This document shows positions 3,319 to 44,584 of a DNA stretch of 62,151 bases, in pieces (within the stretch, counting starts at the first letter, position 1; every line of letters starts with the position of its first letter). Source of the DNA: Stegostoma tigrinum (Eukaryota). The position numbers and the translations under genes were made by a program. The notes beneath the pieces were generated by a model. It made no database searches. It was given only the letters and a program-made list of their open reading frames with translations, and was not told the origin of the DNA. The stretch spans positions 34,723,828-34,785,978 of the forward strand of contig NC_081358.1 in NCBI RefSeq assembly GCF_030684315.1, in the 5' to 3' direction.

Positions 3319-3967
3319 AGTGCCTTTGGTTTCTCTTAGCTGCACCCATAATTTATGTTTCCTAACAATATTAACCTAAGAGAGGAAGCTTAAATCCAAG
3401 TATTAATTTTAAAAATGATTGAAGTCACTAATAGGAATTTCAAAACGCTAGTTCAAATGGAGGCATAGTGTGGGGGCTTCAAATCATTCCATCCATCTGG
3501 ACCAGTTTTCTTAGCATTAACAAGAGGGTCCAGTAAGCTGGTATCTGCCAGCAGTATGCACCAGAATGAATACATTGCCATGGTTGCTGCCTGTAAGAAT
3601 GCTGCACTACAGGGACAAGAGTTCGAGTATTAGGGTAGGCCAACAGTGGGACAACAAAGTTCTCACTTCAGCCGTCAGCATTTAGTGGCCTGGCAGCAGT
3701 AGGGGGCAGGCTGAAAGCTTGCTGGGTTTAGCTAAATTTGCAGTTGGCGCAACAGCAAGTGAGAAGGAGACAGCTGCTCTTCCAATCACAGATCAAGGTT
3801 GCTGTTATAGGTCCTTCAATCAAAAATTTCCTATCTCTTGCTTTTCCCAGAGTCTGTGATTCCTAAGGTAGCTCCATCTCTCCTGCTCTCACCGTTTTTC
3901 CAATGACAACTGTGCAGCTAGTATTGACTTTCAACACTGGCAGTTTAACTGGCAATTAACAATTCTG

Positions 3968-4061
3968 AGACAACAAGGTGTAGAGCTGGACGACCACAGC
4001 AGGCCAAGCAGCATTAGAGGAGCAGGAAAGCTGACTTTTCGGGTCTGGACCCTTCTTCAGA
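3968..4061 (-). mobile_element. Mini Penelope-like element, family A (single arm, no tail) with hammerhead-like motif
   Basis: Minus strand reads CTGAAGAAGGGTCCAGACCCGAAAAGTC; possible 7-bp TSD AATTCTG at 3961..3967 and 4062..4068. Confidence 0.7.
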
Positions 4062-4400
4062 AATTCTGTCTTTTTTTTAGAAAGAACTTGACAGTTTCTG
4101 AGTGGAAGGAGACTTCAGGCAGGTTTGTAGTTCAATTGCCAGATTTAGAGTGAAAATTGGGACACTCAGTGGTTTTGAAAGTCTTCTGTATGACTACAAA
4201 GCTACCTGCAAATCAGAAGTAGCAGTTCCAGCCTGCAGCAACTCCCAATTTACATAAAAACCAGCAATGCTTTTCCCATCTGAAGTGACCACCAAATTTG
4301 TCTGGTGGCTGTACCAGATCTGCAACAGAAACACAAGGTTGATAATGTAGAAGGTTGAAATCAAATGAGCTAAAGGGCCTTCTTCATCTGAGAAATAGTA

Positions 4401-4925
4401 ATGGAGAGAAGGAGGCTAAGAGGGGATTTAATAGAGACATACAAGATGATCAGAGGATTAGATAGGGTGGACAGTGAGAGCCTTTTTCCGAGGATGATGA
4501 CTTCAGCTTGTACAAGGGGGCATAGCTACAAATTGAGGGGTGATAGATTTAAGACAGATGTCAGAGGCAGGCTCTTTACTCAGAGAGTGGTAAGGGCGTG
4601 GAACACCCTGCCTGCCAGTGTAGTTAACTCAGCCATATTAGGGGCATTTAAACTGTCCTTGGATAAGCATATGGATGATGACGGGATAGTGTAGGGTGAG
4701 GGGCTTAGATTAGTTCACAGGTCGGTGCAACATCGTGGGCCAAAGGGCCTGTTCTGCGCTGTATTGTTCTATATTCTATATTCTATTCTATGAATGGGAA
4801 GGACCGAGAGGGATAGGGACCAAATGTGGGCAATTGGAACTAATTGAGTGGGCACCATGGTTAGCATGGGCCAGTTTGGGCCAAAGGGCCTGGTTTCATG
4901 CTGTATTACTCTATGATTCTATGCC
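4401..4925 (+). mobile_element. Two CR1 3' ends in tandem (4401..4790 well preserved; 4791..4925 older)
   Basis: ORF MERRRLRGDLIETYKM...TRGHSYKL...FTQRVVRAWN; tails (TTCTA)n and CTATGATTCTATG. Confidence 0.9.
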
Positions 4926-6955
4926 CCTAGTATTTGACATTCCTACCTTGTGGAAAAAATAATTAAACTATCCATTCTGTCCATGCCTTTCAGAATTTTA
5001 CGTATTTCTCTCAGGTTGCCTCCTCAGCCTTCAACATTCTAGCAAAACCAATCCAAGTTTGTTTGATCTCTTTATAGCTAATACACTCCAGTCAAGACAA
5101 CATCCTGTTAAACTTGTTTTGCACCCTTTCCAAAGCCTCCACATCCTTCCCATGATGTGGCGACCGGAACTGCACCCAGTACTCCAAACGCAGCCTAAGT
5201 AAAGTTTTATACAGCTGCAACATAACTTTAACCAACTTTTATACTCAATGCCTCAACCAATGAAGATAAGCATGCTGTCCTCCTTCTGTACCATCTTATT
5301 CACTTGTGTTGTCTTTTCCAGGGAACTATTGACTTGTACCCAAAGAACCCTCCATGTATCAATGCTCCCAAGGGCCTTGACACATACTGTATATTTGCCT
5401 CTTGCATTTGACCTCCCTAAATGTATCACCTCACGAATATCTGGATTAAACTTCATCTGCCATTTCTCCAATCAACTTTCTAAGTGACCTATATCCTGCT
5501 GTACTCTCTGACAACCTTCTTCATTAGCCTCAAATCCACCAGCTTTTGTGTCATATGAAATCTTGCTAATCAAACCACCTACATCATCATCCAAATCAAT
5601 TACATACATCAAACACAACAGAAGTTCCAACACCAATCCTTGTGGAACTGCACTGGTCACAAACCTCCAGTCAGCAAAACATCCCTCCACAACTACCTTC
5701 TATCTTGTATGACCAAGCCAATTTTTTCATCCAAATTAGCAACTCACCATGAATCCCATGCGACTTAATCTTCTGGACAAGCCCACCATTGTCAAATGTT
5801 TTACCACAATTCCATGTAGACAACAACCGCTGCCCCACCCTCATCAATTTTTTTTATCACTTCCTCAAAAAACTCAAACAGGCTTGTGAGACAAGACCTC
5901 TCCCGCACAAAGCCATGCTGACTCTCCCTAATAAGTACATTCTTCTCCAAATGTAAGTAAGCTCTATCCCCAAGAATCTTTTCTAATAATTTACCAACCA
6001 CTGCCATATTGTTCCTGTCATCCTACTTAAACAAAGGAACAACATTGACCATTTTCCAGTCTTCTGGGACATTCCATGAGGCTAAAGAGGATATAAAGAT
6101 CTCTGACAAGGCCCCAGCAACATCCCCTTGACTCCCTCGGTATTCTGGGACAGATGCCATCAGGCCCTGGGGTCTTATCTACCTTAATGTTTTTCAACTC
6201 ATCCAACATCTTCAATTTATTAGTATCAACATGGCCTAGAATATCAACAAGTCCCTGTCTAAACTTACCATGACCTGGTGAATACTAATGTGAAATACTC
6301 ATTAAGTATCTCAACCACTTCCTCACATGTGGCACCACACATAAATTCTACCCTTTAGCCTTGAGCAAACTTACCCTTCCCCTCGCTACCTTCTTGCCCC
6401 TAATATACGTGTAAAATGCCTTGGGATTCTCTTTAACTTCCCAAGGATATTTCATGGCCCCTTTCAACCCTCCCAATTCCTTGTTTTAATTTGTTTTGCT
6501 TCCGTTTTACTCCTCAAGGGCCTTGTTTGATTTTAGTTTTATAACCCATATGTATGTTTCTTTTTCCTTTTTGACTAACGTTTCAATTTATCACATCATC
6601 CAGGGCTCCTGATTCTTGCCATCCTTATCCTTCATCCTCATGGGAAAATTCTGCTCCTGAACTCTGATCAACTGGCCTTTAAACTTAACTGCCCCGCACC
6701 CTCCCCACACCAACGCCCCCCCCCCCCTCCCCACCCCACCTCACCACATGTCAGATACGGATTTACCTTCAAACAGGCAACATTTCTACGCTCACAACCT
6801 CCCTCCCCCACCCCAGCCCCCGCCACCCCATCCACAATCCAATCTATTTTCTCCAGTTCCCACCTAATCCTGTTTTGATTAGTCTTCCCCTATTTTGGCA
6901 CTTTCAGATAAGGATCAGTTTTATCCTTATCTATAATTGTCTTAAAACTTACTTG
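4926..6955 (-). mobile_element. CR1 LINE ORF2 relic
   Basis: Minus-strand pieces QHGFVRERSCLT, VPQGLVL, KWQMKFNP, KTPGPDGICPR. Confidence 0.9.
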
Positions 6956-43059: not shown

Positions 43060-43430
43060 TATGCTACATAAACACTTAATAAGAAGGTTAGGTGCTACAA
43101 AGTTGGTGGGAATATATCAGATAGTGCCACAAAGTGTCAGCATCAACAAGACATTTTCAAGATAGCAGGCTGTGACTAGTGGAGTATATTAGAAATGTCA
43201 GTCCTGTGGCTGCAAGTGTTTACAATCTACATTCATTATGTAGATGAATATGCAAGGAGCTGTGTGTCTAAGTTTACTGATGGTACAAAGCAAGGTCGAA
43301 AGATAAAATATGGGAGGTCAAAAAGACTGCAGAGAGATACAGCCAGGTAAATGGGCAACCAGATGGCAGATGGAGTAGAATGTATAGGAGTGTGAGTTTA
43401 TTTATTTTGATTGGAACAATAGAGAAGTAA
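43060..43430 (+). mobile_element. Old CR1 RT fragment
   Basis: QAVTSGV, LFTIYI, SKFTDGTK and WQME in order. Confidence 0.7.
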
Positions 43431-43595
43431 TGGCCTGTAACTTTGGACTTATTCTGATGGACACAAGAGGGAGAAGCAACCTTTACCTGCCATGTCTCCT
43501 ACAGCCAATCGTCCAAACTCCAGTTGCTCATGGGACTCTCCATCACTGAAAAGCACAGCACACAGGGAGCAAAGCCATACCCATCCATGATGCCA

Positions 43596-43741
43596 GAGAT
43601 AATGGGAACTGCAAATGCTGGAGAATCCGACATAACAAAGTGTGGAGTTGGTTGGATAAACACAGCAGGCCAAGCAGCATCTTCTGTGCTCCTAAGATGC
43701 TGCTTGGCCTGCTGTGTTCATCCTGCTCCACACTTTGTTAT
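43596..43741 (-). mobile_element. Fold-back mini-PLE family A (no hammerhead core), imperfect TSD
   Basis: TC(C/T)ATGATGC(C/T)A at 43584..43595 and 43742..43753; tail GAGATAATGGGAACTGC, then inverted arms. Confidence 0.8.
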
Positions 43742-44584
43742 TCTATGATGCTAGAGAAGTTGGCAATGCTACTTGCAGGCAACAGCAAAGAGCATTGGGA
43801 TTTACATCAAAAAAATCAATAAATCCTCTGCTGCATTTTTCATAGCTTTCAAACATTTAATGTTATTGATATCAACTAATTTTAAACATAATGATTTTCT
43901 TTATTTCTCTTTAACATTCAATGGCATTGTTACTTAATAATTTTCAGTGTAGTTAGTTTTTCTTGATTTACATTCAATGATTCTTACAGAATGAATGTGG
44001 CTGAGTGACATGAGTTGACATAATGCCATGGATGAAGTAGATAGGTAAGGTTTGAGGCTATTATCTGGGTAGGAGACATCTGGGGTGGCAGTGGGTAAAT
44101 TGGTGATTGGGTGCAATGTGGCAGGTCAGTATGTTAGTAGCTCGGTAGGATGGTGAAGCAGCAGGTGAGTCAGGTGGCAGGGTGGCAGGAAGGTGAGGGG
44201 ATGGTGTGGGTCAGGGAGAGTTAGGTCTGTGTCAGGAGCTTGGTGCTGGGAGGATGTAGATTTTAAAGGGTAGAGATGGATTGCTGAGGGAAGACAGGAT
44301 TACTAGATGAGAATAATTAATTTTAACATTTACCCAGCATGTTTTTATGAATCCAACATTTTCTCGTTAACTCTTCGGGTAGGTAATTTGGGAAACTTTG
44401 ATCCTATCTCAGATCTTGTGACTCTTCCGGAGCTGTATGTTGGACAATCTTCCCAGGCAATTCCCTGGTAGTGACATGCATTGAGATCTCAGCAAGGCCC
44501 TGACGTACATTTCCAATCTATGTTATTGCAACCAGAAGGCCACTCCCAGAGAATCTGGACCAATATTTTCTGAAAAGTCTGAAA

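Follow-up and report, generated by a model that had tools for sequence, protein, structure and literature searches.

Canonical endonuclease-positive Penelope-like elements (EN+ PLEs) are described as carrying head-to-head inverted repeats, a one-sided tail of 30-40 nt, an enclosing target-site duplication (TSD), solo pseudo-long terminal repeats (pLTRs) and junction palindromes (Arkhipova 2013, PMC3846280; Craig 2021, PMC8557442). In Adineta vaga, Pen2a_Av and similar elements have an inverted pLTR, a 31-bp one-sided tail, TSDs of 8-10 bp and solo pLTRs (PMC3846280), and inverted PLE copies with a tail of 30-40 bp also appear in PMC8557442 and in a curation guide (PMC8969392). For a Poseidon PLE of Anolis, PAc, the protein cuts and extends both target strands in vitro and is predicted to be a dimer; two start sites of reverse transcription, internal to the RNA, bound the tail, and a hammerhead about 100-150 nt upstream is dispensable for in vitro insertion (Frangieh 2024, PMC11167929). 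Here we describe a family of tiny PLE-like termini in a 62,151-nt stretch of the Stegostoma tigrinum genome (GCF_030684315.1, NC_081358.1, 34,723,828-34,785,978, forward strand; hereafter the window), to which all counts below refer. We read its copies, with a probability of roughly 0.7, as dead-end, terminus-only insertions made by the reverse transcriptase (RT)/GIY-YIG protein of a Neptune-type PLE.

The family shares the canonical features listed above. Unlike the kilobase-long EN+ copies, which bear open reading frames (ORFs) and have TSDs of 8-10 bp (PMC3846280, PMC8557442), the copies here are 94-229 bp long, hold ORF sequence at none of eight loci and have TSDs of 12-15 bp. Their geometry, offered as novel in a first-pass annotation of this DNA, had already been described in those two papers. 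Because both the architecture and two-site priming are published, the family is neat rather than surprising to a PLE specialist. It is a real feature that published PLE anatomy and mechanism largely explain; what could raise its importance are a fixed 5' boundary and its possible abundance.

As in PAc, two start sites bound the tail and genomic ends fall on those sites, and we propose that both target strands were cut and extended here as well. The family differs from PAc in its Neptune-type affinity, in its targets (PAc prefers AT-rich ATT sites, whereas these TSDs are 29-53% GC and have no consensus) and in its start sites, which lie in an AC-rich stem-loop in PAc and both at a TTATCT motif here; hairpin products do not figure in the available text of the PAc account (PMC11167929). 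Non-LTR retrozymes, reported in the one chondrichthyan sampled, are likewise small, non-coding, hammerhead-bearing and pLTR-related, but form head-to-tail tandem arrays, whereas our copies are dispersed singles and head-to-head hairpins (bioRxiv 10.64898/2026.07.22.740005). We set aside a non-LTR retrozyme, since the arms are inverted and none of the 23 Tandem Repeats Finder (TRF) rows is a head-to-tail hammerhead array. A tRNA-derived short interspersed nuclear element (SINE) was also rejected: ARAGORN found no tRNA genes in the window, a weak test for decayed heads, and there were no Rfam matches at gathering level. In L1 twin priming, both target nicks prime cDNA and leave an inverted junction inside the TSD, and the products are non-overlapping segments begun at variable internal priming sites. 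Here, by contrast, the two arms cover nearly the same sequence, the second start is at a fixed site and one stretch of RNA is copied twice.

A PLE expansion has been reported in whale shark introns (bioRxiv 10.1101/443036). The available parts of PMC6155905, PMC5753468, PMC12602865 and PMC12910113 describe no such hairpins, and the literature searched, which leaves out most subscription journals, yielded no account of PLE hairpins made of termini alone in sharks, nor of priming from both ends by PLEs.

Copies, ends and target-site duplications

BLAST and nhmmer searches with copy E (13266-13396) recovered 13 arms at eight loci across the window. All eight loci had been marked in the first pass, with starts that agree within 1-2 nt. 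Positions are numbered r1-r131 along copy E, with r1 at the tail end; RNA of the hammerhead sense is the reverse complement of this sequence. The copies cover 1271 nt (2.0% of the window) and are listed here, hairpins without a strand.

3968-4061, minus strand: copy A, a single tail-less arm (r34/35-128) of subfamily b; a 7-bp repeat at 3961-3967 / 4062-4068 is a doubtful TSD that also resembles element sequence
10655-10883: copy B, a hairpin with arms 10655-10748 and 10753-10847 (92/94 paired), a 4-nt centre and a 36-nt tail (10848-10883); TSD of 15 bp, no mismatches, 10640-10654 / 10884-10898
11821-11950, minus strand: copy C, a single tailed arm, r1-128(+); TSD of 13 bp exact (16 with one mismatch), 11809-11821 / 11953-11965
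12789-12991: copy D, an older hairpin with arms reaching r123 and r116 (15 mismatches in 75 columns) and a 33-nt tail; TSD of 14 bp, no mismatches, 12775-12788 / 12992-13005
13266-13396, minus strand: copy E, a single tailed arm, r1-131, with hammerhead G12 lost
13879-14074: copy F, a hairpin with tailed arm r1-98, tail-less arm r34-128(+) and a 33-nt tail; TSD of 14 bp, one mismatch, 13865-13878 / 14076-14089
39616-39757: copy G, a hairpin with arms reaching r93 and r85, no hammerhead and a tail of 36-38 nt; TSD of 15 bp, no mismatches, 39601-39615 / 39758-39772
43596-43741: copy H, a hairpin with arms reaching r84 and r97, no hammerhead and a 36-nt tail; TSD of 12 bp, two mismatches (10/12), 43584-43595 / 43742-43753

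Five of the eight loci (B, D, F, G, H) are hairpins, head to head and joined at their RNA-5' sides, and each has an unpaired tail of 33-38 nt on one end only; the first pass had likewise given five hairpins, with tails of 33-37 nt. The others are single arms, A without a tail and C and E with one. All seven tailed arms have their outer end at r1. The next base in the RNA sense is T in six of them, and in five of those six it is also the first base of the TSD or flank, which suggests a 1-nt match between primer and template. The tail-less arms end at r34-38 in 6/6 cases. The stop of the short arm, earlier described as a fixed point, is thus a tight cluster spread over a 5-nt window rather than a single base.

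TSDs of 12-15 bp, seen at six copies in the first pass, flank B, C, D, F, G and H (6/8 loci), and are both long and variable, as expected of the retro-insertion proposed there. A junction-flush repeat of at least 12 nt with one mismatch allowed occurred in 1/2886 random pseudo-elements; B, C, D, F and G pass this rule, and H passes only with two mismatches. The TSDs have no common sequence. Copy G interrupts a Poseidon-like PLE remnant. A paralog of this remnant, at 60.4-61.0 kb, serves as an empty site: near 60.5 kb the anchors that enclose the insert and two 15-nt copies in G are separated by exactly 15 nt, so the TSD of copy G is a true duplication. Within the window, an empty site was found for one of ten loci, that of G. 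Just left of copy E, a 9-nt stretch (13249-13257) is complementary to part of the E tail, by chance or through a local template switch.

The inner arm ends of the hairpins (B r131/130, D 123/116, F 98/128, G 93/85, H 84/97) define five different centres, so they are not copies of a single hairpin master. Diagnostic bases separate at least two subfamilies, B/E/G/H and A/D/F, with C intermediate. These observations, together with the single-arm copies, do not support the earlier picture of one non-autonomous hairpin family. The two arms of a hairpin differ by 1-15 substitutions. Four variant positions recur in both arms of B and one in both arms of G, the pattern that a single source and a single event per hairpin would leave. 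Each arm of D, F and H contains bases absent from its partner; neither arm, as it stands, can therefore be a copy of the other. The first-pass claim that no copy codes for protein fits the absence of coding evidence: a 44-codon open frame of the arm matched 0/3 candidates, weak evidence from a search of longer proteins only.

A profile built from nine window arms extended the set to 23 arms at 15 loci, seeds counted, and gave no match to the reversed window. Of the 15 loci, seven are of sister terminus families. Within 3.4 kb (10655-14074) lie five of the eight family copies (p ~0.0015 under uniform placement) and one locus of a more distant terminus family. Such a local hotspot makes copy density unsafe to extrapolate.

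Hammerheads and a probable relation to Neptune-type PLEs

Three further loci carry the link to PLE proteins and to the layout of PLE termini.

31857-32762, plus strand: locus J/K; TSD, tail and inverted terminus, GIY-YIG ORF remnant, C-rich 3' untranslated region (UTR), hammerhead, tail-less terminus, TSD
11045-11390, plus strand: locus N; a Neptune-type RT fragment (11130-11390) and, joined to it, an inverted tailed arm (11045-11134) from a more distantly related terminus family
25854-26032, no strand: locus I; hairpin and tail of a sister terminus family, with a TSD at 25841-25853 / 26033-26045 (12/13 match)

In locus J/K, the tail and inverted terminus (J, 31857-31978) are followed by a Neptune-type linker and GIY-YIG ORF remnant (~31969-32460) and by the hammerhead and tail-less terminus (K, 32664-32762), whose end falls at the position equivalent to r34-35; the whole is enclosed by a TSD at 31842-31854 / 32763-32775 (11/13 match). 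Arm E is identical to terminus J in 82/109 columns and to K in 71/97, each above all 300 shuffles, and has no such match to the Poseidon-like 3' end. The GIY-YIG remnant matches 8/16 candidate proteins at 51-57% identity. These proteins carry a CxxC linker and CCHH motifs, which are features of Neptune and Nematis (Craig 2021, PMC8557442). In the remnant itself the CX2-5CxxC linker, intact in the closest matches, is partly decayed and precedes a C-terminal GIY-YIG with CCHH. The PLE origin put forward in the first pass is supported by a tie, through a sister terminus in the same window, to a Neptune-type GIY-YIG remnant, which that terminus flanks with the same inverted arm, tail and TSD.

The RT fragment of locus N points the same way. 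It retrieves 556 proteins at E<=0.001, and of the 16 proteins of at least 590 aa among the 150 matches listed, 13 also match the J/K endonuclease piece. Four of these proteins were tested, and each has both RVT_1 and GIY-YIG matches (E<=0.01), some of which fall below Pfam cut-offs. The locus N arm itself resembles the main family only at a borderline level (1, 11 and 72 of 300 shuffles), and we did not use it as primary evidence. P0109, an unrelated gene model among the proteins retrieved, opens with an antisense translation of a family-like arm, followed by a PLE RT fragment, and agrees with the tail-less arm of copy F at 15/25 residues. We are confident that the copies derive from PLE termini (pLTRs), and consider the Neptune clade the probable source.

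The sister families J/K and I share the layout, so the geometry is general for these PLE termini and not special to one family. The long arm of locus I starts 6 nt upstream of the hammerhead core and has a helix I of 6 bp. Four older sister-family termini lie at 10034-10165 (M), 18237-18440 (O), 22307-22421 (L) and 22772-22857 (P); O and L resemble decayed hairpins with tails, P and M are single arms that stop close to the hammerhead's 5' edge, and clear TSDs were not seen.

Metazoan PLE hammerheads are minimal type I motifs with a CUGANGA/GAAA core, an extra base before helix II, a G10.1-C11.1 pair, a palindromic 15.2-16.2 pair and no helix III; most are dispersed single motifs, and some occur as pairs on opposite strands, separated by 100-700 bp (Cervera and De la Pena 2014, PMC4209133). 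The present family agrees in the core, the extra base, the G10.1-C11.1 and palindromic pairs and the lack of helix III. Its helix II is 4-5 bp and its helix I 2 bp (2 bp is reported for D. virilis), and most copies here are decayed or without the motif. Two arms hold an intact hammerhead.

10717-10746, minus strand: hammerhead in the left arm of copy B, intact minimal type I, with CUGAUGA, bulged A, 4-bp helix II, GAAA-C-G-UC and 2-bp helix I
13980-14009, plus strand: hammerhead in the tail-less (right) arm of copy F, intact

On both strands of the window, a minimal type I descriptor gave four matches, all in the family (A, left arm of B, C, right arm of F); 20 Markov control windows gave three. 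The hammerhead is recognisable in 6/13 arms and, with the palindromic 15.2-16.2 pair kept only in the two arms listed, intact in 2/13. In copy A the boxes are present and the 15.2-16.2 pair is broken, the right arm of B has lost G12 as E has, the first core box is missing from D, and the arms of G and H end before the ribozyme; three of the eight loci (D, G, H) thus have no complete hammerhead. Rfam gave no gathering-level match in the window and no hammerhead at E<=10 in 3.5-14.5 kb; the 29 sub-threshold matches in that interval, mostly to microRNA (miRNA) hairpin models, were dismissed as generic hairpin matches. In nine arms that represent three terminus families, pairing of helix II reaches 97.8%, against 8-46% overall in slid controls, and helix II covariation does not beat shuffles (47/500). 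When six arms were folded singly, none beat shuffles (z -1.6 to 0.65) and none folded as a hammerhead.

Copy B folds into one duplex of about 94 bp (z = -27). A duplex of this length buries the hammerhead, so the transcript of a hairpin cannot form the ribozyme, and we regard the hairpin as an insertion product, not a replicating unit. The hammerhead is not supported as a general feature of the copies, as which the first pass had treated it; here it marks ancestry, and its role as an acting ribozyme is putative.

Among 11 tailed arms, the two blocks of strongest conservation are complementary to each other and predict a 7-bp helix between arm and tail; its 3' strand would fall in the interval bounded by the priming sites. 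It is 90.9% paired over the 11 arms, which contain no compensatory change, so the helix is conserved but conjectural.

Proposed insertion mechanism and its rivals

Our data suggest a scheme in which both ends of the target are primed. The endonuclease would nick both target strands 12-15 nt apart, as the TSDs and the one empty site indicate. Each 3'-OH may then prime cDNA on PLE RNA at r1 or at r34-38, the sites at which the ends cluster. Both cDNAs would run about 50-130 nt toward the 5' side of the RNA, at most just past the hammerhead core, and join head to head, leaving a hairpin unpaired only between the two start sites. Where one end alone was primed, a single arm with or without a tail would result (A, C and E). 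The first pass had proposed two priming events about 35 nt apart, one of them at the RNA's 3' terminus. The two fixed points are indeed seen; as the published start sites are internal, neither need be the RNA 3' end (PMC11167929).

Several points weigh against this reading. No ORF is attached to the exact family terminus within the window, and the link runs via a sister family that is about 75% identical. Pfam matched no RT or GIY-YIG domain in PLE fragments from the window itself; among ten window fragments only a CR1-like RT matched convincingly. The biochemistry on which the scheme leans by analogy comes from a Poseidon element, and we found none for Neptune. The TSD of copy A is doubtful and copy E has none near its ends, flank matches being at most 8 nt within ~6.5 kb. 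The variants shared between arms could come from gene conversion instead. All three single arms are full length as against 3/10 hairpin arms (Fisher p=0.07), which fits deletion at the centre. Palindrome centres are prone to deletion; D, F, G and H may once have been symmetric palindromes like B that lost central sequence later, in which case their asymmetry would no longer argue against copy-back.

One rival, a weaker version of the non-autonomous family of the first pass, concerns the template and is compatible with two-ended priming. Rather than an autonomous mRNA, the template could be a dedicated non-autonomous RNA of about 130 nt, a SINE-like solo pLTR or a retrozyme-type monomer. The inner ends of six of the 13 arms fall at r128-131, which is 1-4 nt upstream of C3 in the hammerhead core, and no arm extends visibly further; a post-hoc corrected binomial gives ~6e-4 for this clustering, the arms being non-independent. 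The sister arms I and P start 5-6 nt upstream of C3. Upstream of r131, five single arms and the K 3' UTR showed no shared sequence (0 blastn matches between different sequences). Two of 15 upstream pairs beat all 200 mononucleotide shuffles and were rejected: the alignments are gappy, gave 13/500 and 226/500 against random window segments and have no blastn match. The absence of ORF sequence from all eight loci also suits a dedicated RNA, as do reports of non-autonomous PLE derivatives (PMC8557442; bioRxiv 10.64898/2026.07.22.740005). On the other side, the 23 TRF rows contain no tandem array of the unit, ARAGORN found no tRNA-like head, and ends do not pile up at the hammerhead cut site r99/100, the nearest being r98 and r97 (2/13). 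The sister termini J/K and N are, moreover, linked to ORFs. PLE transcripts start within the pLTR (PMC6765202), and run-off to the 5' end of an autonomous mRNA would give the same boundary. We consider a dedicated template possible and treat it as a minority view.

Copy-back is a further alternative, and an unlikely one. Here the cDNA would reach the RNA 5' side, fold back and copy itself, or antisense RNA would self-prime; resolution by the endonuclease would leave the one-sided tail, and the centres would be deleted later. Self-priming, with palindromes at inverted junctions, was proposed by Arkhipova (2013, PMC3846280), and a tail formed through EN-mediated resolution by Craig (2021, PMC8557442). 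The symmetry of B around a 4-nt centre suits this route, as does the greater length of single arms compared with many hairpin arms. The inner ends of the single arms A and E form palindromic stubs of 5 and 4 bp, which could be read as its traces; their loops, however, are 1 nt long, and that of E may instead belong to helix I. For D, F and H, whose tail-less arm extends further 5' than the tailed one, an extra deletion step is needed, and the tail-less single arm of A starts at the same internal site without any partner arm. Two RT start sites bounding the tail were, in addition, seen directly in vitro (PMC11167929). Between the two routes we lean towards two-ended priming.

A DNA-transposon miniature inverted-repeat transposable element (MITE) is very improbable. 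The copies are short, non-coding and palindromic, and both outer ends begin with a similar GATAA motif; their ends are nonetheless asymmetric rather than symmetric terminal inverted repeats, the TSDs are 12-15 bp without consensus rather than short and constant, all five hairpin centres differ, a TSD also encloses the single arm C, there is a hammerhead motif and a GIY-YIG ORF is flanked by a homologous terminus. An assembly or library fold-back artefact, which the assembly gaps and one perfect 146-bp inverted duplication elsewhere in the window might suggest, is hardly credible for arms that differ by 1-15 substitutions, TSDs that flank hairpins and a copy (G) with an empty site in a paralog.

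The clustering at r128-131 suggests a hard 5' boundary of the RNA, either because transcription begins in the pLTR or because the template is a short RNA of its own. Taking two-ended priming further, one could tentatively envision a unit that is a fixed RNA of about 130 nt, from the hammerhead 5' edge to the tail, supplied by a run-off, "strong-stop-like" cDNA that ends at the 5' terminus of PLE transcripts or by a dedicated short RNA. A dimeric RT-endonuclease might copy it twice, once per nick, from start sites flanking the 3' strand of the 7-bp arm-tail helix, with unequal hairpins arising by later deletion at the centre. If this were true and the window typical, with its 8 family loci (15 once sister families are counted) in 62 kb, Neptune PLEs would yield terminus-only hairpins as a main product in this genome, with some 10^5 copies. 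For a clade on which we found no biochemistry, the copies would also provide an in vivo map of how far the nicks are staggered, where the two priming sites lie and where the RNA has its 5' end.

The main use of the family would lie in its many natural records of PLE insertion. The later steps of PLE integration are described as not yet validated (PMC11167929), and the PLE cycle has been called undefined (PMC8557442). Within less than 250 bp, each copy preserves its two junctions, the two priming sites and the join at the centre, so a genome-wide table could separate two-ended priming from copy-back and examine a fixed RNA 5' end without bench work. Such copies resemble MITEs or miRNA hairpins, as the many sub-threshold Rfam miRNA matches attest, and are easily mislabelled in annotation.

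Other features of the window

Two decayed Poseidon-like PLE remnants with a different terminus lie at 38955-40064 (minus strand) and 60435-61100 (plus strand). The first hosts copy G and carries within it an inverted repeat of 229 nt (39070-39294) as well as a 5' piece in inverted orientation. A dispersed SINE-like family has at least four copies (13682-13804, 16365-16478, 26793-26915, 30129-30331), one of which abuts the flank of copy F.

The last coding exon of a CHD7 ortholog occupies 57869-58801 on the minus strand (67-68% to turtle CHD7 and 59% to gar, with no cartilaginous fish among the 120 matches listed for proteins of at most 2000 aa), and the repeat-rich part of the window lies downstream of it. 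CR1-like long interspersed nuclear element (LINE) remnants occur at 45481-46706 (minus strand), with related copies near 2.5-5.6, 27-29, 34.8-36.3 and 47-49 kb; one CR1-like remnant has a 236-codon open RT stretch (RVT_1, E 5.5e-23). The 146-bp inverted duplicate (28685-28830 / 29749-29894) is a LINE-3'-like stretch with 100% identity and 918 nt between its copies, and may reflect a recent inversion or conversion, or an assembly artefact.

Tandem repeats include a 42-bp minisatellite at 20335-21925 (~30 + 7 copies, 88-89% match), open in several frames, and a 28-bp C-rich repeat at 24374-24626 (~5-6 copies). Positions 1-1100 consist of a degenerate (CAC/CAT)n microsatellite with N gaps at 320-469 and 860-1002 and an exact 99-bp duplication beside a gap.

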